From positions 1 to 23,930 of the forward strand of contig CAVPXM010000049.1 of the NCBI GenBank assembly GCA_963709405.1: a DNA stretch of 23,930 nucleotides. Direction: 5' to 3'. Both the position numbers and the translations under genes were made by a program. Positions 4,070 through 21,371 of the stretch are shown here, one piece after another. The notes beneath the pieces were generated by a model. That model worked only from the letters and a program-made list of their open reading frames with translations. It did no database searches and had not been told where the DNA came from. Numbering within the stretch: the stretch's first letter is position 1; each line of letters starts with the position of its first letter. This DNA is from an uncultured Nitrososphaerales archaeon (lineage in GTDB: Archaea > Thermoproteota > Nitrososphaeria > Nitrososphaerales > Nitrososphaeraceae).

Positions 4070-4749
4070 GGCTCTGTTCACTTAATGATAAAATCTATAG
4101 ATTGAAGATGTCCTATCTCGTTTTATGAATACAAGAAATAGAACATCTTTAGAATATATTGGCCATGGTCTATATTTTTATTTATTTTCAGGTCTTTCAT
4201 TAAGAAAGACATACGAAAGATTATCGTCTTGTTTTATAAAGAGAAATCATGTATCAGTCTGGAATCGGATACAAAAGTATAAACCCAAAAAGATATTTGA
4301 CAGGAAAAAGAAAATCGAGGAATTCATCGTTAAGTAAACACAAATAAAAATTGGTTCAGAATTGATATGGCTTTGGGTTGCTATCGAACTTGAGAGTAAG
4401 GAAATCCTTGGAATTAGTATATCCAAAGAGAGAGAAATATTATGCTTCTAGCTGAGCAATTTATTTCAAGCCTAGTTAAGATTCATGGTCAACATCTAGT
4501 TTCCACAGATGGAGGTACTTGGTATCCACAGGCTTGCAGGTTCTTGAGATTGTCCCATCATATCCATTCTTCCTATGAGAAAAGCATCATAGAAAGGACG
4601 ATACAGTACATAAAAGATAGAACCGAATTCTTTGATGACTATTTTCCTTGCAGAAAGAAGAATTGTAATTTATTACATGTGTGGAATTGGTTAAATCTAT
4701 TTGTAGGTTATCATAACAAGCAATTACAAATCGTTAAGTGAATAGGACC
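4070..4749 (+). mobile_element. IS6-family insertion sequence
   Basis: TIRs GGCTCTGTTCACTTAATGAT (4070-4089) and GGTCCTATTCACTTAACGAT (reverse complement of 4730-4749), 16/20 identical; about 680 bp. Confidence 0.85.
4125..4741 (+). pseudogene. IS6-family DDE transposase, disrupted
   Basis: YLFSGLSLRK..RNHVSVWNRIQKY, stop where the first catalytic D(E) is expected, IKIGSELIWLWVAIE, frameshift, VSTDGGTWYPQACRFL, EKSIIERTIQYIKDRTEFFDDYFPC. Confidence 0.88.
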
Positions 4750-4757
4750 GGATAAAG

Positions 4758-5960
4758 GGCCCTGTTAACAGTTATGTAAAGAATATGTAATGCTCTTCTG
4801 TAAACTAACAGTGCTCGTTCAGATACCATAACACCTTTAGCTTACTCTCTTTTAAATTATCAGCATGAGGGATACATTCCTCAGATTGCTTACAAATAAT
4901 GAAAAGAATAGGTTACATGATAGCATACTTGAGGATAGAGAATCTGGATACCGTGCAAAGATTATTCTTCTTAAGGATGATGGATACACAGTTCCTGAAA
5001 TAAGGAAGGCAACTAACCATCATGATAGCAACATAAGAAAATGGATTCATCGTTTCAATGAAAAAGGTATAGATGGAATAGCATCAAAAATACACAAGCA
5101 TAAACCAATCAAAATATCTGACGATATGGAGAATAAGATTGTGGAGATAGCAACCAAAAATTCAAGAAAAGATTATGGATTACCATTTTCCACATGGTCA
5201 TTAAGAGGTACTAGCAGGATTTGTCTCCAAGGAGATGAGCCTTGTAGATGCTATCAGCCACACCGAGGTTAGAAATATCCTCCTAAAACACGGAATAAAA
5301 TATAGGCAGTCAAAGATTACTCTGGGACACAGCCTAGATCCTGAATATCATTTGAAAAAAAGAGAATTGAAGAACTAAGATACAGTAACCTGTCTTCTGA
5401 CTCAGTACCTACTCTACGAGGATGAGAAAGGACCGATAGTAGCAAAAACATATGGCGGTACATCTTGGTCCTCTACACAGTCTAAGGTATCCAAAGCTCA
5501 AAAGACAAAGGGAATTCTAAACGTGTTTGGTATATACGATTATACCAATGATCAAATGTGGACGCATGGCTACAAAAAGAAAACCGGAAAACAGTTTTTA
5601 GATTTTATCAAAAGAATGGACCAAAAGTATGACGATAGTATCAAGCAGATATTTCTGATACTTGATAACGTATCGATACATAAATCAAACAAGGTGAAAG
5701 CAGTATTATCCAAATATCATCCAAGGATACACCTTGTATTTCTTCCCACCAGATCACCCGAGCTCAATCTGATAGAGGTAAGATGGCTATGGATGCAACG
5801 ACAAGCAATAAACAATTCCACCTTTCAAAATGAACGTGATATAGGTAAAGCAGTATCTGATTGGGCATGTGATTATAATAAAAACATAGAGGCAAAACTA
5901 GTATAAACAGTTTACATGGAGAAAGCATCTACATGTTTACATAACTCTTAACTAAGTGCC
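4758..5960 (+). mobile_element. IS630-family insertion sequence
   Basis: Inverted ends GTTAACAGTTATGTAAA (4764) and GTTAAGAGTTATGTAAA (reverse complement, ending 5952), with TA at 4766-67 and 5949-50. Similarity extends outward to GGC at 4758 and 5960, so the exact boundary is uncertain. Confidence 0.8.
4865..5906 (+). pseudogene. IS630-family transposase, frameshifted
   Basis: HTH (IRKWIHRFNEKGIDG), FSTWSLR, A7G slippery site at ~5355-5362 (typical programmed -1 site), YEDEKGP, ILDNVSIHKS, FLPTRSPELNLIE. Two additional indels (~5208, ~5408). Confidence 0.9.
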
Positions 5961-6950: not shown

Positions 6951-8450
6951 ATGAGATGCGAGAACCCTGTCATGAATCAGATTCTCGATGCTTACAAACC
7001 AATGTGGTCGCTAAAACATGCCATTTCTCTAATGGGTTGGGACTTTGAGACTTATATGCCTAGGGAAGGCACGGAAGAAAGAGGAGTGGCCGATTCTCAA
7101 CTTCACATGCTGCACAAGGATCTTCTGCTAAACAAAGATTTTATTGGTCTTGTTGAGTCAGCGAAGAAACTGGGAAGCCTTAGCGACATAGAGAAGGGCA
7201 TTGTACGAGTACTCAACAGGGAAATAACCAAGCAGATCAGGATACCCAAAGAGTTGACCGAAGCAGAATCTCTGGAAAGAATAAGGGGAAACATGGCATG
7301 GAGGGAAGCGAGAGAAAAATCTGCTTTCAGGATGTATGAACCGCACTTGAAGAAAATGATAGAAATAAAGAAGCAAATCGCTGAGAAGATAGGTTATGAA
7401 AAGCATCCATATGATGCGCTTCTGGATACGTTTGAAGAAGAGCTTACAGTAGATGACTTGGATAAAGTATTCGGTGCATTGACTCCGCGTATTCAGAAGA
7501 TTCTGAAAAAACTCGTAGATTCAGGCAGCCCATATTGCAAAGAGAGCAAACTTGGAAAATCAAGGTATGATATCCAAAAAGTGGATGAGCTCAATCATGA
7601 TATTTTGACTCTCCTGCAATACGACATGAAACGTTTCAGAATGGATGTATCTACTCATCCTTTCACTGAGGCTATGGGCCTCAACGACGTCAGAATAACT
7701 ACCCGGTATGAAGGGACTGATTTCAAAAAGTCGATATTTGGTACTATTCATGAAGCTGGTCATGCGTTGTATAATCTGCAATGCGATCAGTCATTGTCTG
7801 TTACTCCTCTTGAAGGAGGATCTTCGCTTGCGCTCCATGAATCTCAGTCAAGGTTTTGGGAAAATATTGTGGGCAGAAGCCTGCCTTTTGTTCAATTGAT
7901 AGCTCCATTGATTAGAAAGCAAGTAAGTTTCGCAAACCAAGCAACAGATGACGAATTGTACCTTTATTTCAATAATGTCAAGGCTGATTATATACGAGTT
8001 GACGCCGATGAAGTTACTTACAATCTACATATAGCAGTAAGATATGAGATAGAGAAAAAAGTATTTGGAGATGATCTCAGCGTCTCTGAGATTCCTGAAT
8101 TCTGGAACGATAGAATGGAGCAGCTGCTTGGAGTGAGACCAACTAAGGATTCACAGGGAGTGCTTCAAGATACACATTGGAGCAGTGGCCTCTTTGGCTA
8201 TTTCCCAACTTACACTTTGGGAAACTTGGTTTCAGCGATCATTGCTTCAAAGATGCGCAAAGATCTGGAGGGCTACGAGGAAGACATCAAGAGGGGTAAT
8301 TTCGAGCCTATTAGGAAATGGTTAAGATTGAAAATACACCAGCATGGATCTGTTTATGCCCCCAAAGTGCTTCTTAATAATACCTTCAATGAAGGCTATA
8401 ACCCAGATTACTTTGTTACCTACATCGAGACTAAATACCTTGGGTTCTGA
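6951..8450 (+). CDS. Carboxypeptidase Taq family metallocarboxypeptidase (peptidase M32)
   Basis: 499 aa with M32 motifs HPF, DVRITT, HEAGH (HExxH), HESQSRFWEN, IRVDADEVTY, QDTHW, GYFPTYTLG. Confidence 0.96.
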   Translation: MRCENPVMNQILDAYKPMWSLKHAISLMGWDFETYMPREGTEERGVADSQLHMLHKDLLLNKDFIGLVESAKKLGSLSDIEKGIVRVLNREITKQIRIPKELTEAESLERIRGNMAWREAREKSAFRMYEPHLKKMIEIKKQIAEKIGYEKHPYDALLDTFEEELTVDDLDKVFGALTPRIQKILKKLVDSGSPYCKESKLGKSRYDIQKVDELNHDILTLLQYDMKRFRMDVSTHPFTEAMGLNDVRITTRYEGTDFKKSIFGTIHEAGHALYNLQCDQSLSVTPLEGGSSLALHESQSRFWENIVGRSLPFVQLIAPLIRKQVSFANQATDDELYLYFNNVKADYIRVDADEVTYNLHIAVRYEIEKKVFGDDLSVSEIPEFWNDRMEQLLGVRPTKDSQGVLQDTHWSSGLFGYFPTYTLGNLVSAIIASKMRKDLEGYEEDIKRGNFEPIRKWLRLKIHQHGSVYAPKVLLNNTFNEGYNPDYFVTYIETKYLGF

Positions 8451-8760
8451 ACCCTAGCCTATTTGATTAAAACTATATTCTAATTCTTCTTATATCCTCC
8501 GGTGACCATCAGGCTTTCAGCACAACGACTTTACCCATCCAATATTTTCATGGTACTCCGACATCTCGAACTGGAAAGAATTATTTAAGGATGATTCTTC
8601 ACATGATGACCTTCGACGGTTGGGTAGACAATGCTATAAAGTTCTTGGAAGGATACAGAGACAGACGTCTTAGTTTGCTCTGAGATATTTGGCAAATATT
8701 AATTCATCTGGAATGTCTATTTCTTTCTTTTAAGCATCTTGGAACGAATTGCAAACGTAG

Positions 8761-8775
8761 AAAAACTTATTAAAA
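8761..8775 (+). promoter_or_regulatory. Putative archaeal BRE/TATA promoter
   Basis: AAAAAC-TTATTAAA about 20-25 bp upstream of ATG 8793, consistent with a leaderless transcript. Confidence 0.45.
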
Positions 8776-8792
8776 TACCTATACATATCCCT

Positions 8793-9215
8793 ATGATGTC
8801 ATCAGTCGAGTCTTTGAGAGGAGTTGTCCGACGATTGGAAGACACGTTTAACGATCCACAGCGTAGGGAATTATCTTACTTTGATTTTTATGATGATTCC
8901 TTGACTTTTCATGATTTTCCTCCAAATCAACCAGCCAACAAGGAAGGTTTTAAACAGTTCATTTATCTCCTGTGGAAAGCATTCCCTGATATAATAATCA
9001 CTTTTGAAGATATCATAATCGAAGGAAATAATGTGGCATGCAGATACAATTTATCTGGAACCCACAAAGGTCAATTTGAGAATCTTCGGCCAACTGATAA
9101 ACAATTCAGGGTTAATGGTATGACAGTATTTTCTTTCCGTGATGCAAAAGTCATAGAACGTTGGAATGTGGTGGATATGAAGTCAATGATAGAACAGTTG
9201 AGGACCCAATCCTGA
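8793..9215 (+). CDS. SnoaL-like ester cyclase (NTF2 fold)
   Basis: KEGFKQF..KAFPD..EDIIIEGNNVACRY..SGTHKGQF..PTDKQFRVNGMTVFSFRDAKVIERW. ATG 8793 preferred over TTG 8739 because of the TATA position. Confidence 0.9.
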   Translation: MMSSVESLRGVVRRLEDTFNDPQRRELSYFDFYDDSLTFHDFPPNQPANKEGFKQFIYLLWKAFPDIIITFEDIIIEGNNVACRYNLSGTHKGQFENLRPTDKQFRVNGMTVFSFRDAKVIERWNVVDMKSMIEQLRTQS

Positions 9216-9296
9216 GCCATGTTTGTCATTTGCATTAATCAACACCGGGAGGTAAGTTGGACAAACCTAATGTTCTAAACAGATACTGTCCTTAAC

Positions 9297-9580
9297 ATAT
9301 TGAATGAGCGCGCCTCACGATAGAATGCACATTAAAACGTAGAAGGTGTCTTGTAGACAAGATTAAAGAATTACTAGCAGATGAGATAAATGATAATAAA
9401 ATTTCATCTAAGTGGATTGAAGAATGCCTTCCAAGAGACTATAAACGAAAATATACACGCAAAAGCGAACTCAGTTCGCTTTCGAAAAAAACCGAGAGTA
9501 CAATACTCATCAACAGTGATACAGGGTGCAGTGATTCTTATGACAATATAGCCGACAAATTAGCGAATGGCTACAGGTAA
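9297..9580 (+). pseudogene. Remnant paralog of ORF 13789-14466
   Basis: KIKELLADEINDNKISSKWIEECLPRDYKRKYTRKSELSSLSK aligns with KIKEILKDKIREGKITAKWIEDCLPPEYKRKYTTKSEDTSLSK; no intact start. Confidence 0.85.
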
Positions 9581-9625
9581 CTCTTTTCCATATTTTGAAT
9601 CTCAAAATGTACAAGCAGGGCTTTC

Positions 9626-9836
9626 CTATAATTCGTCTGGAAAGTTGCTTCCATAAACAGCTTTGAACTTTTTAAACATCAACGCACAGTTTGCCGTATC
9701 AAAAGTATAGTATGTACCATCAATTTGTTCTATTGCTAAAGCTGTCGTTATTTTCGGTTTATCATTTGACATGTTCGGCGCTAATTATAACCTCTTTTCC
9801 ACACACTGGGCATTTATTTTCATGTGCTAGTATCAT
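9626..9836 (-). pseudogene. Small YHS/TRASH-like metal-binding protein, one frameshift
   Basis: MILAHENKCPVCGKEV /fs/ ..IEQIDGTYYTFDTANCALMFKKFKAVYGSNFPDEL*. Confidence 0.7.
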
Positions 9837-10059
9837 ATAATACTAGGCAGTCTCCTTTTTTCTTATCGAAGCAATAGAAGTGTAATTATAGTTAGTTTCT
9901 TATAGGTCTATACGTAAAAATATTACATGACATTTACACATATACACATTTTTATTTTGTTTGTGGATAGAGCGACACGGTTTTAATTGCCAAGAGTACT
10001 TAGGCTTGATACCAACTATTGAATAGTTGGTTGGTTAACTGGTTCATTAACAATATTCA

Positions 10060-11330
10060 TTAACGATAATTAGAAAAGCTATCTCGGCTACGCAGGGAAA
10101 GGCTTAGGCTATGCAATTCGCTAATAAGCCGGTTTATGGCCTTGTTAGCCGAACTGTAATAGATTGCCTGTTTAAACCAATTTGGAATTCTATTCTTACT
10201 AATGAAGAGATCGAATGCAGAGTCTAACACATAGGTATCCGCATAGTCAGTTTGTGAACGAACGCTACGGCCACAGGTCTGTACTAACCGTAAGGCTGTC
10301 TGCCAATTATACCATTGTGGGCTTCTCTTGCGTTTAGCATCTGTCCATTTATCGCTTGTATTTGGAAAAGGTACCTTTACCAGAATTTGAAATCGTGCGT
10401 AATCGTCTTTTAGGTCTAGGCCTGTATGTAATGACGGAGATATTAAGACTGTTGGTTTAGTTGATGCAAAGTGTTCTGCAATGATTTGGGTTCTACGACC
10501 ACCACCGGAATATTCTATGGCTGAAGTGGATACAGTAGGTATCAGTCTTCGTTTATTTTTTCGGCTTAGGTATTTCTCGATAAACTCTAGTTGGGTGTAT
10601 GACGTAGTATGAATTATACCCTTAGTATCTACATATTCATCCATTATCCTATCAACAGCCTTTGCTAGTGCCTGCTTAACGTTTTCAACTTGGAGGCTAT
10701 CCTTATTCAGATAAGTTATGTTTACTGGATAGACAGGTCTATTCTCTGGTGGAAGGTCTGAATCTACCGATATGAATTTTATTCTGTCTTTCTGTGGGTC
10801 TAGTCCTATGTTCCGGCAGAATGTATCTACATCTAGAATAGTGGCACTCATTATCAGATTGTGAGGACACTTTTCAAATAACTTTCTACAGTAACGTGCT
10901 ATATCAAGGGGTTTAAACTCTAGTTTTATTACTCTTCTTTTGTTGCTGCTGCTATTATTCTTGTCCCTATTATTATCTAATACGATATCTGAAACAATCC
11001 AATTTGTATAGTCTAGTTTTATGTCGGCTATGGTATCTTCTAGCTTGGCTACATAATCCTTGGCATTCTGCGCTATTTCTAGCGATTTCATGGTGAGGAT
11101 TGCATCAGCTATTTGTTTGGCTAGATCTCCTAGGAACGGAATCCACTTCTCTTCTATAGAGTCGTCATAACCATAGGGTACATTTTCCAGAACATAAGTT
11201 GGTATGAATTGCTGTATCGTTCTTTTTGAGATAGATATGCTAGTGTTACTTACTATCTGGGTTTCTATCTGATGACCCTCGTCTAAGACTAGGAGTTGTT
11301 TTTGTGGTAGTCCATTGATACTATTAGGCG
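10060..11330 (-). pseudogene. DinG/XPD(Rad3)-family SF2 helicase, 5'-truncated
   Basis: Frame stays open upstream of ATG 11091 and contains LLVLDEGH (motif II); then MSATI, GIIHTTSY, ISPSLHTGLDL, KVPFP, QTCGRSVRS..D. Motif I and the Fe-S domain are missing. Confidence 0.88.
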
Positions 11331-11491
11331 AAGAGACCTCATCTCAGTGGTTCGCTGAAAGTGGACCAATTGAACCCTATGTCTTAGCAGATCTTTATGC
11401 ATGGCTTGAAGCTCATTCCGGATTTACAAATCATGCTACAGCAGCCGCGCATGTCACTTCTACACCGTCCTCTAACTCTACTGCTAAATAG
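11327..11491 (+). pseudogene. C-terminal gene remnant, resembling the tail of an alpha/beta hydrolase
   Basis: SSQWFAESGPIEPYVLADLYAWLEAHSGFTNH..AK*, no start codon; the family assignment is from recall only. Confidence 0.45.
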
Positions 11492-11764
11492 AATAATCCC
11501 GAGAATAACGACTGTGCACATTGGTTTGTTTAGCATTTATTCTGACAGCTGATAAAATAAAATATTATCACTACTAATGGGGTATTTTTTCTTTCAGCTA
11601 TGGTACTTCCTAGTACCTGGACTGAAAGAAATTTACTGAGCGTTTGAATTTTCTCATTAAATAATGGTCTTGCAATTATGTAAGACTTGTACTGAACGAA
11701 AAAGCAAAGATGTTGAAGGGAAATAATCACCTGAGCGATAGTAAATCAGATCGATAGTATTTCC

Positions 11765-11807
11765 AGCGGATTCGGTGGAATGCAATTAAGTAGTGTATGT
11801 AATCCAC
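11765..11807. repeat. Inverted dispersed copy of the 6657-6763 repeat
   Basis: Reverse complement of 11765-11806 matches 6681-6722 at 34/42 positions without gaps. Confidence 0.8.
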
Positions 11808-12865
11808 TTTTTTGGACAAGTCATCAGATATCGTCTTGCGTGGATAAGTGAAAGCAATTCGTTATCGAGCTGCGATTTATACTGTCTTAGTATGTATAGA
11901 TGAAAGCCGAATGGGATGGTGCGCCATCCTGCTCTAAACAATACCGGTAGAGATTTTATATCGCTTTTCGTTTTGCATATCTCTAATACGACTGGCCGTC
12001 TTACACGTTAAGATATTACAGAATATTACCAAGTGTCTAATTAATCAAAAGCAGGTTGAGAGAGGACTTGATATGGCGCAAATGTGGATTTATACATAGA
12101 AATTGGATCTGATATCATTTAACACCCAGGATACCCGGGTTATTTTCTAACCTAAAGAAGAATTTTCTTTGGATTCAGAAAGAATTATGAAAGGAAAGTA
12201 AACCAACAGATAAAATCAGATGTGTGTGGGAATAGATTTTATGAACATATAGAAGAACAAAAAACTGCGGTATCAGAATACCTAAACAAAACATTTGGAA
12301 TATGGTATGACGACATTAAATATGACACTTGACTTAGAAGATGCTCTAACGGAACTAGAGACATACCAAAGTTTTTTAGCAGATATTATGGATGAAGAGG
12401 CTAGACGTGAAATGAATGAGTAAGATTAAAAGTTGTTAATCACGCATATGTGCTACATTAAGCGTGCACCTCATGGTAGACGTTCATATTTTATCATCTT
12501 AACCAAACGTCAGTCTATACATTTGATCTCTCAATTCAGAAAACCTTTTTAATCTGATTTATTTCATAACGTAAATAGAAGATGCTATGTCCGATATGTT
12601 TATCCTGGATCTGATCTAATATCCGATTGGATGTACCGTATCTTTTACAAATATTAGATACTGTATCGCCAGTCCATTCTTTTTCGTGTATTAGATTAAA
12701 CCTTGTTCTGCTTTCTATATGGATTCACTTCCTGCCAGAAGTGTAACCCATGTCTGTAAGCTAAATTGTCACCTATGTTAGGAAGTACAACAGCTAAGTA
12801 AACGTTGTAACGAAAGGGAATTTAAATTACGGATGCGAGTCAAGGGCGCGCGCGCAAGAATCTGA

Positions 12866-13773
12866 TCATGTGTGCAACTTTTCCTGTATAGCAGCATCTA
12901 ACCTCACCCCTGGATACTCTTGACGCTCTTTTCTAATTCTAATTCCATTACCCTGTTTCATATCCTTTGAGTAAATACGAAGTAATGCATGTTCTCCGTC
13001 CTCCCATGTCATCTCGAATTTCTCTCCTGCGTACTCACTTGAAGAATCTGTACCAAAGTGCCACATAGTTACAATCCAGGAATTATGATTTGGAATATGA
13101 ATTTGAGGCAAGTGGGTTATAGCATGTGGGCAGCCTATTACCGATGCCAACAGTCTCTCTTCTACCGATGTTAGTATACTTGACAAGCGGATAAGACCTT
13201 CATGATCAACAACTACTGGTTTCATAGAACATGATATGATGACACTCACTGTATCAGAATGGTGCACAATTGTCTTTGCCTCCATATCATAGGTCTGAAT
13301 AGGCATTAGAGAAATATCTTTACTCACTCCATTAGGTGTCAGCTCAGGATGGTACGATGTATGGTTGACCAGATCCCTTCAGTTTTGAATCTAAGGCGGA
13401 TATTGTGTACTGAGTGTCTTTCAGACTGTAAGTTATCGATAAATGACAGTGATGACACTGGAGTGACCACCATACGGTTATCTGTCACTGCCGGTTTAGG
13501 TTTAGCAAAGTTAAATCCCTTTAAGCTGTAAAATGCAGGACCAGAATAGTATTCTAGTTGCGCATAACCATTTCTTACATATTGCGAAATCTTATTCCTA
13601 TACGTTCCATGAGTCATGCTATATTTCTTGTCATCTACTTCAAATTCTAAAAAATCGAGATAACAAAACGGTCTTTTCTCGAATCGTACTATCCTTTGCA
13701 TATGAACCTTCATTGCATAATCTAACTTTGTCTTGCCCATTCCTTCGTCGCCCAGAATACTAAACACTAGCAC
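12866..13773 (-). pseudogene. Hypothetical protein (possible replication initiator) split by one frameshift
   Basis: ORFs 13339-13773 and 12866-13327 join at ~13355 (..GIWSTI /fs/ YHPELTPNGVSKDISL..). wHTH-like N-terminus (HGTYRNKISQYVRNG), HNIRLRF, IVTMWHFGTD. Rep function is inference. Confidence 0.6.
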
Positions 13774-13788
13774 GTGTCAGTGTCATCG

Positions 13789-14466
13789 TTAATTCGAGTC
13801 AAATTGTTGTTCTCCTATTCGAATGTCAGTTAGTCTTCTATTGACAACATCAACCTTAGCAGCAAATAAGACTTCAGACACAGCACTATTCTTTCTAAGA
13901 GATGATTGCATATGGCTGCGCAGCTCCTCAAATGGAAATTCGAATTGGACATCAAATGATTTATTGTCTTCATAATTATCTGGTGTGTACGCTTCTAACT
14001 CAGACATTACTTCTAGATCCTTACCAACAGGAGATGCATCTGTGTTCAGATTTTCTATATCTGGAGGTCGGCCCTCATAATTTACAACATCTGATGTTGC
14101 AGCTGATTCAATTTCCGAGTTTCCGGATGCGTCAACCTCAATTTCTTTCATATTCTCCTTTGAAAGCGAAGTATCTTCGCTTTTGGTCGTGTATTTGCGC
14201 TTATACTCTGGTGGTAAGCAGTCTTCTATCCACTTTGCAGTGATCTTTCCTTCCCTTATCTTATCTTTCAAGATCTCTTTTATTTTTCTAGATACTTGAT
14301 CCCTTTCACATCGCTTGCTTTCATCCAGGCGGCGCGCGAGTTCATGTATAAGATCCTTTGCCTTCATGAAATTCTTGCCAAGTTGATCAACAACTAGCCT
14401 AAGGTCAATGATGATGCCTTTGATTGTTTGATCGTCTGAAAGACTATTATCATATTCTTCATTCAT
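13789..14466 (-). CDS. Hypothetical helical/HTH-like protein with in-frame palindrome
   Basis: 225 aa; upstream GAGGT RBS-like site; paralogs at 9297 and 20733. Confidence 0.8.
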   Translation of the reverse strand: MNEEYDNSLSDDQTIKGIIIDLRLVVDQLGKNFMKAKDLIHELARRLDESKRCERDQVSRKIKEILKDKIREGKITAKWIEDCLPPEYKRKYTTKSEDTSLSKENMKEIEVDASGNSEIESAATSDVVNYEGRPPDIENLNTDASPVGKDLEVMSELEAYTPDNYEDNKSFDVQFEFPFEELRSHMQSSLRKNSAVSEVLFAAKVDVVNRRLTDIRIGEQQFDSN

Positions 14467-14486
14467 GTCTCTTTACCTCTCTTTAA

Positions 14487-14690
14487 TTAACTATGTCGAC
14501 GCATCCGTGTTTTGGCAGAACCCTTAGATCGCGCCTCTTTGGCATCCTCAAATTGTCGATACCGGAATATGCATTCGTCTTCTTTCTCAGTTACATCATG
14601 TTCTAACTGCTGAATTCTACTTTTGTATTCTTCGTATTTGGTGCAATTTGATTGATGGTTTTCGAATAATTTATTATTAGCATATGTCAT
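14487..14690 (-). CDS. Small coiled-coil hypothetical protein
   Basis: 67 aa; start overlaps the upstream stop (ATGA coupling). Confidence 0.6.
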   Translation of the reverse strand: MTYANNKLFENHQSNCTKYEEYKSRIQQLEHDVTEKEDECIFRYRQFEDAKEARSKGSAKTRMRRHS

Positions 14691-14893
14691 GTTTGTTGCA
14701 CCTCTTGGAATTTAGCAACACAATCTCTGCAAAGCAGTAGGGAAATTACTCCTAGGTTACCAACTTTTACCACAATCTTATCCGTAGCCTTTGAATAGCA
14801 TCCAGCAGCTTCGCATGTAACACTAAGTTCTGAATTGTTCTGATTTCTTTCTGTGAAAGTAAGTTCTTTAGTTAACATGAGTAAGATCCGCAC
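14687..14893 (-). CDS. Small Zn-finger protein
   Basis: CEAAGC...LCRDC four-Cys motif; first gene of the operon; true start may be ATG 14878. Confidence 0.7.
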   Translation of the reverse strand: MRILLMLTKELTFTERNQNNSELSVTCEAAGCYSKATDKIVVKVGNLGVISLLLCRDCVAKFQEVQQT

Positions 14894-14925
14894 ACTAAAA
14901 ATAGGTAAATGTTTTTTCGCATTTT

Positions 14926-15741
14926 ATGGCTGAAGAAGAAAAAAACCCTTCTCAACTGAGTGAGCTAGAAAATCATTATGTTGATCTTTATGTCATAAAT
15001 TGTGCTGCATTGTACCACATTTTAAGGATAAGATATAATGGTCCAAAAGACATTGCAAAAAAGATATTCATAAAGACTGCGAGGTCTAAGATTAAGATGG
15101 CTGAGAATTACTTGTTCTCATATGGATATAGAAACCCGCCTGCCATTTTTTCGCCTACTGAGTTAAATAAAATGCTTAAGAGAGATCTTGGAAAACCTCA
15201 CGGTTTATCTGACAATGAGACGTATTTGCGCCCTGCCGTTATTACTCAGATTCTGCAGGAGCTGGAACAATATGAAGTATATCATAATGTAAAAGGGAAA
15301 AAAGAATTGAGGAGACAAAAAAGAATAGGATCAGAAAAATCAAATTTCATCTACAAACGATCAGGCGGTAGACCTTCAGCCTACATGATTTCAGATATCT
15401 ACTCTAAGTCAAACGAAATTATCAGTAAGCCTGAAGTAAGAAATTTGATCCGCAAAAAACTCATTGATTATAATATTGGATTGCCTCTATGGAAATATAT
15501 ATTCATGGCAATTTTCTATTCATTCAAGATAGATAAAGAGGCGGCATCCAAAATACTTCTAATGGTTGGCCCGCCAATAGCTGAAGTAGATCCGTCTAAA
15601 ATTCAATCTCTATTCGATGAAATTGCTTCACTTGATGAGAACAAATTTGAAGAATTATCCGAACTGTACTCCAAACTTATGTTAGATAGTGGTTTTCATT
15701 TTTCAGTAACTGGTTTCTTGGGACTTATGCAACACAAGTAA
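14926..15741 (+). CDS. Putative winged-helix regulator of the integrated element
   Basis: 271 aa; FSPTELNK..ITQILQELEQ..SGGRPSAY wing-like motif; divergent from the operon. Confidence 0.65.
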   Translation: MAEEEKNPSQLSELENHYVDLYVINCAALYHILRIRYNGPKDIAKKIFIKTARSKIKMAENYLFSYGYRNPPAIFSPTELNKMLKRDLGKPHGLSDNETYLRPAVITQILQELEQYEVYHNVKGKKELRRQKRIGSEKSNFIYKRSGGRPSAYMISDIYSKSNEIISKPEVRNLIRKKLIDYNIGLPLWKYIFMAIFYSFKIDKEAASKILLMVGPPIAEVDPSKIQSLFDEIASLDENKFEELSELYSKLMLDSGFHFSVTGFLGLMQHK

Positions 15742-15921
15742 CAATATTACTCATATCATCTGTATAATCGGTAATACCCCAGCATAGCGCTTATCATACG
15801 TAAGTATGTAAATTTTCAGATTTATATAATTAAAGAGTTTGTCTTTGGTAGCTCAATAAAATATTTGAATCACATATCTACCAAATGATGCAGAAAGATG
15901 ATTCAAATAGAATCAAGTAAA

Positions 15922-17139
15922 TTAGCCAAGTTTCTTTTTCATTAATATCTCTGGCTTGACTTGCGTTAATTTAGGATTACGCTGTATCATTGACATAATC
16001 TGATTGAATCGCTGATTAGTCTCATCACGGATACTCTGTATATCATGTTCATATTTCTGCTTCATTGCTTGCATTTCCCTATCCTTTTCAGATAATTTTG
16101 ATTCAATGCTCTTGCCTCTAGCTTCCAGTGCAGTATAGTCAAGGAATGTAAGATACTTCATACATTTTGTGAGATAAATCTCTCTTCTCTCAGACTCTTT
16201 TTTCGTGTAATAGACGCTACCATTATGACCTAAGAACCATTCACTGTAGTCTCCTCCGACCTCATCAGAGAGCACTGTTTTGACAAAGCGTCGTAACGAA
16301 TGAAGTGTGATCTTCCTTCGTCTCATTCCATCTTTCCTTTCATCTAAACCAGCAACCTTTAGTACTTTAGTAAATTCTGTTTCTAACTTTATGTACAGAG
16401 TCTCGGGCTTTGATTCTACGTTAAATGTATTGAATATCAGATCATCGGGATTTAAGCTTCTTTCACGATATTTCCAATCTAACCATTGCTTAAGATATCG
16501 AGTTGTTTCATCTGAAATGAAAATATCTCGTGCAACTCTTGTTTTAGTATAGTCTGCGCGAATACGTATCATAGTGGGGTTGGCGTTAAAATTGATATCC
16601 TTTATTCTTATTGCACATCCTTCAACTGCGCGCAGTCCTCCGGATGCCAGAATCAAGAGATATGTTTTAAGCCTGCGGTTATTGCACGACAATAGGATTT
16701 TTCTAATATCTGCGGCATCTATTGGCTCCTCCTTCTCCTTAAGGGTTTTTGGTATCTTTACTTTCCTTTTAAATTTTGATGGTATGATATCTATATCGTA
16801 ATATGCAAAGTATGATTTTATACCTACTAGGTGAGTTTTTATGCTCTGGGGTTTACTTTTTTTCAGATTTTCCTTTATACATTCAAAGGAAACAAAATCA
16901 TCGAGTAACTCGTAAACATTTATCTGATTACATGATAGTGAATCGATAATAGAATCTACATTATATTCGCCGTTATATCGATTGTAAAGGAATCTTTGTA
17001 GGTGGACTAGCGCGGTTCCATAATTGCTTCTAGTCCTTATGCTGTTCTTTCCTATAGTATCTAAAAATGCTCTAGGCTTAGCATGTTTCTCAATTTTCCT
17101 ACGCACAGACTCCATTAACAATAGTTCATTTATGCTCAA
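15922..17139 (-). CDS. Tyrosine recombinase/integrase
   Basis: Full catalytic set: GGLRAVE (R), TKT (K), HSLRR (HxxR), LGH, SVYY (Y); N-terminal SAM-like region and C-terminal coiled coil. Confidence 0.95.
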   Translation of the reverse strand: MSINELLLMESVRRKIEKHAKPRAFLDTIGKNSIRTRSNYGTALVHLQRFLYNRYNGEYNVDSIIDSLSCNQINVYELLDDFVSFECIKENLKKSKPQSIKTHLVGIKSYFAYYDIDIIPSKFKRKVKIPKTLKEKEEPIDAADIRKILLSCNNRRLKTYLLILASGGLRAVEGCAIRIKDINFNANPTMIRIRADYTKTRVARDIFISDETTRYLKQWLDWKYRERSLNPDDLIFNTFNVESKPETLYIKLETEFTKVLKVAGLDERKDGMRRRKITLHSLRRFVKTVLSDEVGGDYSEWFLGHNGSVYYTKKESERREIYLTKCMKYLTFLDYTALEARGKSIESKLSEKDREMQAMKQKYEHDIQSIRDETNQRFNQIMSMIQRNPKLTQVKPEILMKKKLG

Positions 17140-17298
17140 TTCTAAATATAAACTATTTTAGTTATTATTTCATGTACAATATTTTATTCTTATACTGAAG
17201 ATTTTAGATAAAACAACAACCGAGTGGAAAAGGTTATGAAGTACGATATGTCACTTTAGAATAAGATAGGATGTAATCTGTCAATTAGAGTCATAATA

Positions 17299-17691
17299 AT
17301 GAGTACAAATAATAATAATAATCATATGTTGCAGTTTTTAAATCAAAAATACATAAATCTTGAGACTTACCGGAAAAATGGTCAGTCAGTACATACTCCG
17401 GTGTGGTTTGCTATAGACGGTGGGACAATATATATTAGAACCGATGTGCATTCTGGGAAGGTAAAACGCATGAAGAACAATCCGCACATACGCGTAACTC
17501 CCTCTGGAGCTCGCGGAGAGGCTAAAGGTAAATGGCTGGAAGGTCAGATGAAAATGGCAAGTTCTTTAGAATCTGAAAAGGCAAATCAACTTCTTGAACA
17601 AAAATATGGCGTACAAGGAAAATTAATTAGACTGATCAACAAGATTAGACGAACTAGGCCGATAGTACTTTCAATTCAAATACAAACATAG
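17299..17691 (+). CDS. PPOX-class F420-dependent oxidoreductase
   Basis: KYINLETYRKNGQSVHTPVWF..SGKVKRMKNNPHIRVTP..RG..KYG signature. Confidence 0.92.
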   Translation: MSTNNNNNHMLQFLNQKYINLETYRKNGQSVHTPVWFAIDGGTIYIRTDVHSGKVKRMKNNPHIRVTPSGARGEAKGKWLEGQMKMASSLESEKANQLLEQKYGVQGKLIRLINKIRRTRPIVLSIQIQT

Positions 17692-17966
17692 CTATGATTG
17701 TGAATACCGACTACAGAAAGTAGTTAGACATATGATGATTATTGCAAAGCGGAATCAAGTTGACATTTGAATCATTTTGATCTATTATTTATGAATATGC
17801 ATGATGAAATACATTCACATATAATACCATATATTCAGTATTTTTGTATTGTATAGGCCAACTAAATTTTTGAACGTGATTCCACATGCTGGGTTATAGA
17901 CTGACGGTATGATACGTCCATTTTTCTGAATGGCGATCACGCTATGGTTTGATAGGCTGATTTTAG

Positions 17967-18056
17967 TCATTTCTTTAGTTTTCTCTCCATATTATCCGTA
18001 AGCCTATTCAGTAAATCATCGAATGATTCACCAAACTTTCCAATCTCTCTAATAAC
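17967..18056 (-). pseudogene. C-terminal remnant of a small RHH/antitoxin-like DNA-binding protein
   Basis: VIREIGKFGESFDDLLNRLTDNMERKLKK*; G-ESFDD-L-RL is typical of small archaeal RHH proteins. The N-terminus is absent next to the CRISPR repeat. Confidence 0.6.
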
Positions 18057-18076
18057 CTATCCGAAAAGTAGTTGAG

Positions 18077-18173
18077 GTTGTAACTTGACTAATATAGGAT
18101 TGAAATAATCACTAGGCGGTACTCCGTCGCCCCCGCCTAGATGGTTGTAACTTGACTAATATAGGATTGAAAC
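18077..18173 (+). CRISPR. Orphan mini-CRISPR array, 2 repeats and 1 spacer
   Basis: 30-bp repeats GTTGTAACTTGACTAATATAGGATTGAAA(T/C) at 18077-18106 and 18144-18173 with a 37-bp spacer. GTT start and ATTGAAAN end match Cas6-processed type I/III repeats. No cas genes in the window. Confidence 0.8.
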
Positions 18174-18335
18174 TTGATACATGCATACTAGGTATAGGTA
18201 GATGAGCTAAAGCCTCATATTCTTCTGACATGACGCAATTTTTCTCCTTAAGCATATAGAAAGAAGCTATAAATTAAAAGTTCCTAAATAAGGGACAGGT
18301 CTGGATGCTGTGACTCCATATTTGTTATTTTTGTT

Positions 18336-18485
18336 TCAAGAGCGTGGGACATGGCGTCGCTTAGTTTGGACATAGGAGCTTTTTCTGCCGAAGCGTTTTT
18401 TGATGGGGATTAATGCTATAGTAGCTAACAGTGTTACTGCTAATGCAATAGCTACATATTCACCTCTAAGTTTTGTGGAGGTCAT
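18336..18485 (-). CDS. Small signal-peptide/TM protein, possibly a frameshifted remnant
   Basis: MTSTKLRGEYVAIALAVTLLATIALIP.. (49 aa); an alternative frame continues SKNASAEKAPMSK.. to a stop at 18284. Confidence 0.4.
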   Translation of the reverse strand: MTSTKLRGEYVAIALAVTLLATIALIPIKKRFGRKSSYVQTKRRHVPRS

Positions 18486-18529
18486 TGTGAGTCCTAACGT
18501 CTAGAATTATTTAAGGTTTGTTAAATACT

Positions 18530-18684
18530 TCTGCTATAATGTCTGTTATAAAACGACTGTTTGGAGAGCATCTGATGTCTAGATTGACTAGAACACAGAA
18601 TAGGGAATTGTCATTCAGATGCATAACCTACAACATGCATAGACTGACTAATCTGATAATACTGATGATGTTTTCTACAGAGCC
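18530..18684 (+). mobile_element. 3' fragment of an IS5-like DDE transposase with right end
   Basis: IMSVIKRLFGEHLMSR..QNRELSFRCITYNMHR followed by the IR-like end GTTTTCTACAGAGCC. Confidence 0.75.
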
Positions 18685-18692
18685 GAATCAAT

Positions 18693-19809
18693 TTAAAATA
18701 CTATATACATAAGAAAGCAACGCTCTTTGATTCTGTTATCTTTTGTTTTAACTCGAAATGTTCCAAAAGTTCCTTTTGCAGTCTTAACAAAATCAATCAA
18801 CTCATCATTGTTTATTACAATTGATTTCTCAAGTTGTTCTTCTTCTTTGTTTATACGATAAGCCCAATTCTTTTCTTTTATATTGGTTAGATCTGTAGAT
18901 TGGTCCACTTGAGTCGATAACGATGGATCTTTATTACTATTATTAATAGCAGCTGACTGCACATTACTATCATGTTTTCCAGCTGTCAAATCAGAAGGAT
19001 AGGATGGAGGGACCAATTCTTCAGCCTTTAAATATATATTCCTTTGAGAAAATAAGGCACCAACTGTCAAATTTCTAGCTAACGTCACCAGAAAATCGAT
19101 AAACTCGCCGTACAACTCATTTTTCTTATTTTGAATATCCAAAACATTTAGGGCATGTGCAACTTTTTTAGGATCGCATTTATGGTTAGGTTTAACTTGT
19201 AATAGTGATATCAAATCTCCTTGGTTGGACTGGGCCCAATATGACAAACAGTTATAACAAATGTAGCCTCGAAATCCAACAATATTTTTATTCGTGCCCC
19301 ACATATTTCGTGTTGTTGAATTATTATAAGAATTCAATAGGTTAGGGGGTGATGGCGTAGTAAAACCGCTAAATGGCCACGAAATACCTCCCTCCTATAG
19401 CTGATGGTTGCCAGAAAGTGGGTCGACGTCGTTGTTTTGTGATATTTATTATTTCAAGTGCTTGACGTATGGTTTCTAGTAGTTCATGGCCTGCATCTCT
19501 TTTTTTGAAAGATGATGATTCCTTTAATTTCTTAGAATCTAGTTCTGAAAAATGACCATATGATGGATAAGTTTGATGATAGCTGCCATTATTATTATCA
19601 GGATGATAATAATGCCTATCATTTGTTGTTGGCATATTACTCACATCAGAACTACTGAATTGAGTACTAGTTGCATATGACCCTGGTGTTGCTGGTTTTG
19701 CTTTTCCACTATGCTTTCTCTGAATATGTATCTTTAGATTCCAGTTTGTAGAACAGGTTTCAGTGCAATAAGGACAGAGAATCTGTTTTTTCTTTCCAGT
19801 CAAGCACAC
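18693..19809 (-). pseudogene. C2H2 zinc-finger protein, probably one gene split by a frameshift
   Basis: CPYCTETCSTNWNLKIHIQRKH in ORF 19369-19809. The frame of ORF 18693-19337 (GFRGYICYNCL..HKC) stays open back to ~19395, overlapping at GGAGGGAGG. Confidence 0.7.
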
Positions 19810-20732: not shown

Positions 20733-21371
20733 CTAGGATGTCTTTTTTGAGATTCCGCTATCTTTTTGTAGCTCTGGTATTCTTCCTATATTGGCAAAAA
20801 TCACTTCTCCAGTATGTTTGTCAAGAACGCCATTAAACCAAATCCGATCTTCTTTAGTCGCCTCTTCAACTTCCCTTACAATCATGCTCCACCAAAGATC
20901 CTTTGATGAAAGCGAAAATTCAAATTGCAAAAGATCGATATTTTGTGATCTGCTTTTGTCTTCTCTAGTAACATCTGTTAAAGAAGCATCTCTTACGGGC
21001 TTATGATTCTCGATGGTCCTTCCAGTAGCGCTGATTATCACCGGTATATTCTTGGTGTATGATGATGGTGCTCCAGAAAATGCAGCAGATTTGGCCTTCT
21101 TTTGGCTTAAACGGCCAGCTTTTTGCTTCTTTGGATCTTTGGCTTCGTCAGGCAATGCATAAAGTATCGTCCTTCTCCTCCATATACAGGCGCAATCTTT
21201 TTGAATTCTCTGTCTTGCATCCTGGGCTGAAATGTCCTGATTTTCGTTACGTAACGCCTGATACATCTTTGGGATGTATTCGTTAGCAGTTGATGTCAGG
21301 AAAGCATCTACGTTTGTTCTTACCTCTGCAAGTAATTCTGCATAGCTTGGTGTGAGTTTAGAATTTTTCAT
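20733..21371 (-). CDS. Hypothetical protein, distant paralog of 13789-14466
   Basis: Shares LPxExK, KS-palindrome segment, I-x-x-x-A-[ST]-G, QFEF and the C-terminal F-x4-D..IG pattern. Confidence 0.75.
   Translation of the reverse strand: MKNSKLTPSYAELLAEVRTNVDAFLTSTANEYIPKMYQALRNENQDISAQDARQRIQKDCACIWRRRTILYALPDEAKDPKKQKAGRLSQKKAKSAAFSGAPSSYTKNIPVIISATGRTIENHKPVRDASLTDVTREDKSRSQNIDLLQFEFSLSSKDLWWSMIVREVEEATKEDRIWFNGVLDKHTGEVIFANIGRIPELQKDSGISKKTS

Follow-up and report, generated by a model that had tools for sequence, protein, structure and literature searches.

Cis-acting sites embedded in protein-coding sequence are known from several systems. The replication origin of phage lambda lies inside the O gene, in the codons of the linker between the N- and C-terminal domains of a known DNA-binding initiator, and consists of four iterons and an AT-rich region. 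In Bacillus subtilis, a parS palindrome is located within spo0J/parB, the gene of its own binder, and parS also occurs elsewhere on the chromosome. The double-strand origin of pT181-type plasmids lies inside repC, with the nick site of the Rep nuclease in the loop, and the specificities of site and protein co-vary among plasmids. Recombination sites of the lox, dif and att type are built of inverted arms around a 6–8 bp overlap that is identical in partner sites, and the picornavirus cre is a coding-region RNA hairpin. Hardly any cis-acting sites have, to our knowledge, been described for archaeal mobile elements, and we are aware of no plasmid or vector system for ammonia-oxidising archaea. 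Here, we describe a palindrome within the genes of a protein superfamily carried by an integrase-bearing element of an uncultured Nitrososphaerales archaeon. The stretch analysed (the window) is a whole contig of 23,930 nt (C49) from a genome of 4.83 Mb with 37% GC in 100 contigs, and the named relatives of its proteins belong to Nitrososphaeraceae. The palindrome is under nucleotide-level purifying selection and under selection for pairing, and it is present in three sister groups (family 1a, subfamily 1b and family 2) with three different sequences.

The window contains three dyads, referred to as copies 1–3 (Table 1). They had been reported in a preliminary description of the window, and all three were re-read here and found correct in position and sequence. 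Copy 1 reads AAA AGC GAA GAT ACT TCG CTT T on the coding strand (14183–14163); copies 1 and 2 lie in inverted orientation, 4.7 kb apart and in the same frame. The pattern AAAGCGAASNNNSTTCGCTTT, with up to two mismatches, occurred at two places in the window and in none of 100 shuffles. About 10 other perfect inverted repeats of 9–10 nt were listed in the window. A single 9-bp dyad is unremarkable, and its significance therefore rests on homologs. The proposal that the three genes form one paralog family held at the level of profiles: hhalign in local mode aligned family 1a with family 2 (98.1%, E = 9.3e-14) over 173 columns that included both domains, pairing CLPPEYKRK of the former with ALPDEAKDP of the latter. 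However, the family-2 protein P0002 had no BLASTP similarity to the family-1a protein P0001 (E = 11), and copy 2 lies in a fragment (E = 3e-18 for its alignment with P0001) with in-frame stops upstream and no start codon, hence in a truncated pseudogene.

Matches to the superfamily were confined to Nitrososphaeraceae/Nitrososphaerales records in the database searches made here. P0001 had 149 database relatives, none with a Pfam domain, and a sample of 201 genomes from the same family (Nitrososphaeraceae) contained homologs in 24. Another 80 metagenome loci were collected with an alignment of the N-terminal domain (N-domain) only of 13 closer sequences; since the N-domain alone served as the query, this search was blind to the palindrome. 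Within the 60 nt following the KRKY motif, a perfect stem of at least 8 bp was present in 68 of 90 distinct family-1a sequences, and 43 of these 68 stems were 10 bp long. The mean stem in synonymous shuffles drawn from the genome codon usage was 4.6 bp; the observed stem was matched by at most 1 of 200 shuffles in 57 of the 90 sequences (p ≤ 0.005), and p was ≤ 0.05 in 76. Control windows of 60 nt inside the N-domain had a stem of 8 bp in only 1 of 324 cases. The palindrome is thus enriched at this position across homologs when scored against synonymous shuffles, the test proposed in the preliminary description. A lineage typified by L119 retained only an outer 6-bp stem.

Outside the family genes, the dyad was almost absent. 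With up to one mismatch, it occurred at four places in its own genome, all in family genes or fragments (none for a reversed-pattern control), and 238 family genomes contained 18 exact places in 12 genomes (again none for the control). The newly found exact places comprised one full-length homolog, three decayed remnants, two open reading frames (ORFs) with other N-terminal contexts and one place without an ORF. The distribution did not fit dispersed palindromic repeats of the REP, MITE or RPE type, which insert in frame and in many unrelated places of a genome; the copies here lay almost all in family genes or their remnants.

Synonymous variation had collapsed within the palindrome. In 53 representatives below 88% nucleotide identity, almost a single codon was used at each position, namely AAA (44/45), AGC (39/40), GAA (43/44), AGT (29/29), TCG (39/44), CTT (44/44) and TCA (42/45). 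The frozen stretch corresponded to eight codons, K-S-E-[L]-S-S-L-S, with the exception of the central Leu codon, for which five codons were used and whose third base, the centre of the dyad, took all four bases. In the rest of the same genes, two-fold codons had an entropy of about 1 bit and Leu, Ser and Arg codons one of 2–2.4 bits; synonymous freezing was confined to the eight palindrome codons.

Pairing between the arms was examined in the 48 representatives that could be aligned (L097, L025, L133, L030 and L009 were dropped). The 9-bp helix was paired in 92.7% of cells, and two-sided compensatory changes were found at four stem pairs. The covariation score of 0.112 exceeded that of shuffled alignments (0.044 ± 0.009), with none of 500 shuffles reaching the observed value, and shifting the partner by 1–3 columns lowered the pairing from 83.9% to 24–51%. 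Compensated cores included GGG/CCC (L093, L094, L107, L124 and L126), GTA/TAC (L129), GCA/TGC (L131 and L134) and CCG/CGG (L023 and L135), and one-sided intermediates were seen in L077, L079, L024, L041, L026 and L037. In the N-domain tree, GGG/CCC stems had at least two separate origins, and one well-supported clade of close N-domains comprised L112 with GCG/CGC, L129 with GTA/TAC and L107 with GGG/CCC. A G:C to C:G compensatory swap between copies 1 and 2 had been noted in the preliminary description. Compensation is convincing in the stem core, but the swap cited concerned the loop-closing pair, which is the loosest and was unpaired in 15 of 47 sequences.

The two sister groups carried unrelated palindromes. 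Subfamily 1b, in which the N-domain ends in EWKKKTKPKK, was found in 17 of the 238 family genomes and has at the equivalent place (A)GAACGACAA-N-TTGTCGTTC(T), encoding E N D K L S F S. In 12 of its 17 rows, the stem was 7–12 bp long, and compensated variants included GAACGAAA/TTTCGTTC, AGAAAGACAA/TTGTCTTTCT and TGCCGACAA/TTGTCGGCA. Family 2, the relatives of P0002, occurred in 35 of the 201 genomes, among them the complete or near-complete genomes G014, G155 and G163, and a further contig scan returned 13 loci, mostly from the same genomes as the first survey. Its palindromes were TGCTGCA-TTTTC-TGCAGCA, TGCTGCAG-TCG-CTGCAGCA, TGCTGCGG-TYT-CCGCAGCA and TGCTGCAAT-C-ATTGCAGCA; stems of at least 7 bp were found in 10 of 25 rows compared with 0 of 25 upstream control windows, and shuffle p was ≤ 0.05 in 9 of 25. 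One A:T to G:C change in this family was doubly synonymous, a wobble-with-wobble compensation (GCA..TCT to GCG..TCC). In each of the three groups, the middle of the dyad coincides with a third codon position, as had been noted from the window alone, and this phase pairs wobble positions with wobble positions. The frozen synonymous sites, the covariation and the presence of other palindromes at this spot in two sister groups bear out the suggestion that symmetry, rather than the peptide, is conserved.

The arms are strictly Watson–Crick, and wobble is excluded on both. Among palindrome-bearing representatives, the transitions that would create a G·U pair on the sense strand, AAA to AAG, GAA to GAG and AGC to AGT, occurred 0, 0 and 1 times, the single AGT (L129) being compensated, and the sole AAG and GAG rows (L025 and L009) had no palindrome. 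Changes in the other arm were also absent (AGT to AGC, 0/29; CTT to CTC, 0/44). Yet the N-domains of the same genes used the same alternatives freely, with AAG in 242 of 573 Lys codons (42%), GAG in 157 of 482 Glu codons (33%), AGT in 49 of 83 AGY codons (59%) and CTC in 49 of 138 CTY codons (36%). Sense G·U was no commoner than A·C among non-Watson–Crick cells (lineage tally 4 vs. 6, few cases for a test of strand). Of the features of a hairpin selected only for its structure in RNA, covariation was therefore present and tolerance of G·U was not. As a structure-only RNA stem should accept G·U, its absence favours a DNA site or a sequence-specific reader over an mRNA hairpin. Both a cognate protein-binding site and an mRNA hairpin had been offered in the preliminary description; selection on nucleotide-level symmetry stood, whereas the mRNA alternative was weakened.

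We tentatively favour the possibility that the palindrome is a cis site acting at the DNA level, either through hairpin formation or through its two-fold symmetry, and that it serves to maintain or control the element. It would be a selected inverted repeat of mobile-element DNA, placed in the codons that open a disordered linker, where there is little constraint on the peptide, while the arms must stay Watson–Crick complementary. On DNA, it might take the shape of a hairpin, extruded in a cruciform or folded while the DNA is single-stranded, or its two-fold symmetry might be recognised by a dimeric factor that the element provides. Origin-, partition- or operator-like roles would be likely, and the factor may be the N-terminal domain of the gene itself, which always travels with the palindrome. 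The DNA rather than RNA level, the binding partner and the process served are what we infer.

Two observations on the same elements point to DNA. Direct repeats of TGTCATC with a 9-nt period, in two or three copies depending on the relative and followed by ATCGAT, lie in the next gene of the operon. They were found at the same place in 14 representatives (L004, L006, L015, L034, L054, L056, L059, L060, L062–L064, L066, L069 and L128), and their synonymous sites (TCA and GTG) look frozen in this set of only 14. The segment that they encode is disordered in the AlphaFold2 (AF2) model of the downstream protein. Direct repeats in the linker of a neighbouring gene point to DNA sites rather than RNA structure and suggest that the element uses linker codons to house such sites. 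In addition, a paralog on contig 12 (C12:17629–17649, L010) has an inverted loop, ATA to TAT at 3 of 3 bases, with about 3 differences in about 165 flanking nt. This gene contains in-frame stops, and the loop change alters DT to VS. An inverted loop between near-identical flanks is a signature of hairpin-mediated inversion in DNA. The setting, an integrated element with an integrase, also agrees with a site in DNA.

The palindrome is a 21–25 nt element under unusually clear nucleotide-level selection, and its natural compensatory variants and three sequence classes are ready substrates for assays of binding, replication or expression. An origin, a partition site or a new type of control might come to light through it. 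It also illustrates cleanly how the codons of a disordered linker can carry a second layer of information.

Several points weigh against a DNA-level site. The site is solitary, with one palindrome per gene, and half-sites were not enriched outside the gene (5 in 242,478 nt of 77 loci vs. 2–18 per control 8-mer). For extrusion of a cruciform, arms of 9–12 bp are on the short side. Pfam, PHROG, PDB-sequence and fold searches, which could miss remote homologs, revealed no DNA-binding or nuclease fold in the N-domain or the neighbouring proteins. The stem of 8 bp was lacking in 22 of the 90 family-1a sequences, which means that the element can be lost. Close or near-identical N-domains carry differing compensated stems, which fits selection for pairing better than coevolution of protein and site and speaks against base-specific recognition of the varied positions by the protein of the same gene. 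That position and codon phase have stayed fixed despite deep divergence would suit an element acting on the gene's own mRNA as well, and the dyad does form a hairpin in the minimum free energy fold of the RNA, with isolated 24-nt cores at a median of −9.9 kcal/mol.

A more specific form of the DNA-level reading, in which the palindrome belongs to a self-addressed maintenance module of thaumarchaeal integrated elements, seems unlikely. The helical N-domain would recognise, as a dimer or in hairpin form, the palindrome that follows 3–17 codons farther along its own gene. Passed on as one unit, head and site would then have diversified into at least three specificity classes (AAAGCGAA, GAACGACAA and TGCTGCA) coexisting in one genome. 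The dyad class does follow the N-domain subfamily, and head and dyad were always inherited together. This reading is weakened because close N-domains carry different compensated stems. If true, the self-addressed classes could be incompatibility-like groups for replication, partition or autoregulation, and the TGTCATC repeats would be a second coding-embedded site.

The palindrome resembles in kind the coding-embedded cis sites already known, but it fails the defining features of each that could be tested. It is similar to the lambda origin in that the site lies within the linker codons of its own protein and the type of site travels with the type of N-domain. However, each gene has one solitary palindrome instead of an iteron array and no recognisable DNA-binding fold; iteron-like direct repeats are found here in the neighbouring gene instead. 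Likewise, parS in spo0J is a short perfect palindrome conserved at the nucleotide level inside a gene. Whereas ParB has helix-turn-helix and CTPase domains, P0001 has no ParB domain (Pfam, E ≤ 1), and half-sites are not enriched in the flanks. The origin in repC of pT181 is also a hairpin-forming inverted repeat embedded in coding sequence; in contrast, the loop is the freely varying part here, no conserved nick sequence is present, and no nuclease motif or family was detected in the protein. Viral synonymous-constraint elements and RNA hairpins are alike in the way they are detected, through synonymous collapse and a covarying stem within an ORF, but viral hairpins act in RNA genomes and tolerate G·U, unlike the wobble-free arms of this archaeal DNA mobile element. 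Synonymous-constraint elements of viral coding regions are the subject of the FRESCo report (PMC4376164). With regard to context, the closest counterparts are the cryptic integrated elements of Thaumarchaeota, described in passages of one report as integrase-bearing and made up mostly of ORFans; those passages mention neither the protein family nor a gene-embedded palindrome (PMC6563490).

Among the alternatives, a stem-loop in the mRNA acting in cis on its own gene survives best, though we consider it rather unlikely. Such a hairpin might pause or block the ribosome at the domain boundary, or offer a site for binding or processing, with the nascent N-domain and its basic tail as one possible partner. 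The palindrome is always transcribed and occupies the same position after the N-domain, in the same codon phase, in three groups with unrelated stems. It was not seen as an intergenic site in its own genome, in the 238 family genomes or in the flanks of 77 loci, apart from the one exact match without an ORF. Moreover, the compensatory changes are independent of the N-domain phylogeny. The innermost pair appears unselected, as eight Leu rows of subfamily 1b split 6:2 between TTG and CTG, as codon usage predicts once the third base is fixed. An mRNA hairpin does not, however, account for the missing G·U-creating changes, and it leaves the direct repeats in the neighbouring gene unexplained. The RNAalifold consensus was weak (four pairs, −0.85 kcal/mol), the 111-nt context was not unusually stable (z = −0.56), and the window contained no Rfam 15 covariance-model match at the gathering score and no tRNA.

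A recombination site or hot spot, at which heads and tails are exchanged or other elements inserted through a tyrosine recombinase or hairpin-dependent template switching, is improbable. The family is indeed mosaic, with subfamily-1b heads on family-1a-type tails (P0075, P0077 and P0104) and other tails, including a weak match to ParB_N, but in the chimeras head–tail similarity breaks not in the palindrome itself but about 10 codons farther downstream, and none of 2485 sequence pairs was sharply mosaic around the palindrome by a crude measure of identity. Copies 1 and 2, being inverted, 4.7 kb apart and in frame, would suit such exchange, and the loop inversion on contig 12 would fit as well. 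Nevertheless, the central 5 nt of these copies differ (GATAC vs. CTCAG), and a differing centre would block exchange by tyrosine or serine recombinases. Known tyrosine recombinase cores also have a longer spacer than the 1–5 nt seen here. Just upstream of the palindrome, L097 shows a junction or duplication, and 5 of the 80 metagenome contigs (L071, L072, L104, L105 and L113) end at the palindrome or within the last few codons before it. Such ends could be artefacts of assembly, caused by the inverted repeat or by the onset of the variable linker, or could reflect rearrangement within the population. The gene remnants were ordinary decayed pseudogenes without a clean break at the dyad, and scans of 8000–19000 for direct and inverted repeats revealed no flanking repeat (att duplication) involving it.

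An element of the antisense strand is very improbable. There, the stem is extended by up to three G·U pairs and followed by a T-rich stretch, which could terminate or structure an antisense transcript, and a terminator scan flagged 14160–14186 on the + strand only (12 pairs with G–T allowed). Terminator-like sites were nevertheless no more frequent than chance (2 found vs. 1.5 expected in shuffles), relatives had no consistent T tract after the stem, and archaeal termination does not need hairpins. One position past the core, 38 of 42 representatives have a sense A·C, which is an antisense G·U, and two positions out, 33 of 42 are pairable on the antisense strand vs. 17 on the sense strand; moreover, no sense-strand partner exists for the 3′ CA conserved in the TCA codon. 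The A·C excess can, however, stem from fixed Lys and Ser codons and an A/C-rich sense strand, and changes that would create G·U on this strand (those of the other arm listed above) were absent too. A functionless by-product of mutation, in which hairpin-templated repair or template switching keeps the arms similar, is hardly credible: such events do occur, as the loop inversion shows, and one-step arm conversion would mimic compensation, but conversion keeps arms alike without freezing their sequence, whereas 34 of 53 representatives share the GCG/CGC core beside nearby synonymous sites near saturation, and the palindrome persists across three deeply diverged groups. Frameshift, SECIS-like and bulge-helix-bulge intron readings were rejected, as no slippery heptamer, upstream in-frame stop or bulges were present.

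The AF2 model of P0001, built from a 40-sequence alignment, placed the palindrome at the boundary between domains. Residues 7–92 form the helical N-domain with a predicted local distance difference test score (pLDDT) of 85–93; residues 94–168 are disordered (pLDDT < 50), starting exactly with the residues encoded by the palindrome (95–102), which thus lie in the interdomain linker; and the C-terminal part consists of a small helix and a β-hairpin. P0001 lacks the coiled-coil segment of about 55 aa present in its relatives of about 280 aa. No Pfam family matched it at E ≤ 1, and PHROGs, a PDB sequence search and the ESM Atlas were blank. Foldseek comparisons of the models of P0001 and the downstream protein of about 306 aa gave best E values of 0.64 (against PDB) and 1.3e-3, respectively, with template modelling (TM) scores < 0.25. 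The weak ParB_N match was in the tail of P0084, the sole such relative, and was below threshold (20.4 bits vs. a cut-off of 26.3). A scan of IMG/VR with the N-domain alignment returned 402 pattern matches and no relative, giving no evidence of a virus, and the idea of a small terminase with a pac site was dropped. Neither the family nor the palindrome was described in the main texts of the publications searched.

The attribution to archaeal mobile elements in the preliminary description proved correct: they are integrase-bearing, uncharacterised elements of Nitrososphaeraceae. The recurring gene order was a tyrosine integrase, a divergent ORF of about 270–340 aa, two or three small ORFs, the family-1a gene and an ORF of 300–374 aa; apart from the integrase, the ORFs of this module had no family assignment. 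In the window, the downstream gene is split into the ORFs 13339–13773 and 12866–13327 (− strand), the halves of a gene of about 306 aa that is intact in relatives (e.g., L059:2041–2961). The element of copy 1 looks decayed, because this gene is split and P0001 is missing its coiled-coil segment. An antisense ORF (13902–14243, + strand) overlaps the family gene, and the open frame recurs in 21 related loci, where the A-rich sense codons probably create it as a shadow frame.

Table 1. Positions of the palindromes, family genes and associated features in the window.
Feature	Position	Strand	Remarks
Family-1a palindrome, copy 1, AAAGCGAAG-ATA-CTTCGCTTT (9+3+9)	14163..14183	−	Encodes KSEDTSLS, the first linker residues
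Family-1a palindrome, copy 2, AAAGCGAAC-TCA-GTTCGCTTT	9462..9482	+	Perfect 10+1+10
Family-2 palindrome, copy 3, TGCTGCA-TTTTC-TGGAGCA	21069..21087	−	Degraded; 6/7 pairs, one G.G mismatch; perfect 7–9 bp stems in relatives
Family-1a gene, P0001 (225 aa)	13789..14466	−	N-domain, disordered linker and small C-terminal part
Family-1a gene fragment	9338..9580	+	5′-truncated, without start codon; 52% identity to P0001 residues 51–113
Family-2 gene, P0002 (212 aa)	20733..21371	−	Distant paralog of P0001 over N- and C-domains
Tyrosine integrase of the element (PF00589)	15922..17139	−	Context
TGTCATC repeats, then TTTATCGATA	13425..13465	−	Inside ORF 13339–13773; encode LSS(V/L)SSVSFIDNLP

Other parts of the window contained further repeats and gene remnants. 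A perfect 30-nt direct repeat, GGTTGTAACTTGACTAATATAGGATTGAAA, is found at 18076–18105 and 18143–18172, with starts 67 nt apart, in a region without an ORF of at least 70 aa. Similarly, about 1.8 kb (11092–12865) has no ORF of at least 70 aa and holds imperfect palindromes at 11490–11543, 11588–11631 and 12832–12867; it lies upstream of an ORF with only a Helicase_C_2 domain (10060–11091) and probably represents what is left of the N-terminal part of a broken DinG/XPD-like helicase gene. Finally, a run of short ORFs at 4125–5906 (+ strand), of which the scanned ORF 4865–5272 matched HTH_32/HTH_29/HTH_28, looks like a fragmented transposase gene, possibly of the IS630-like type.

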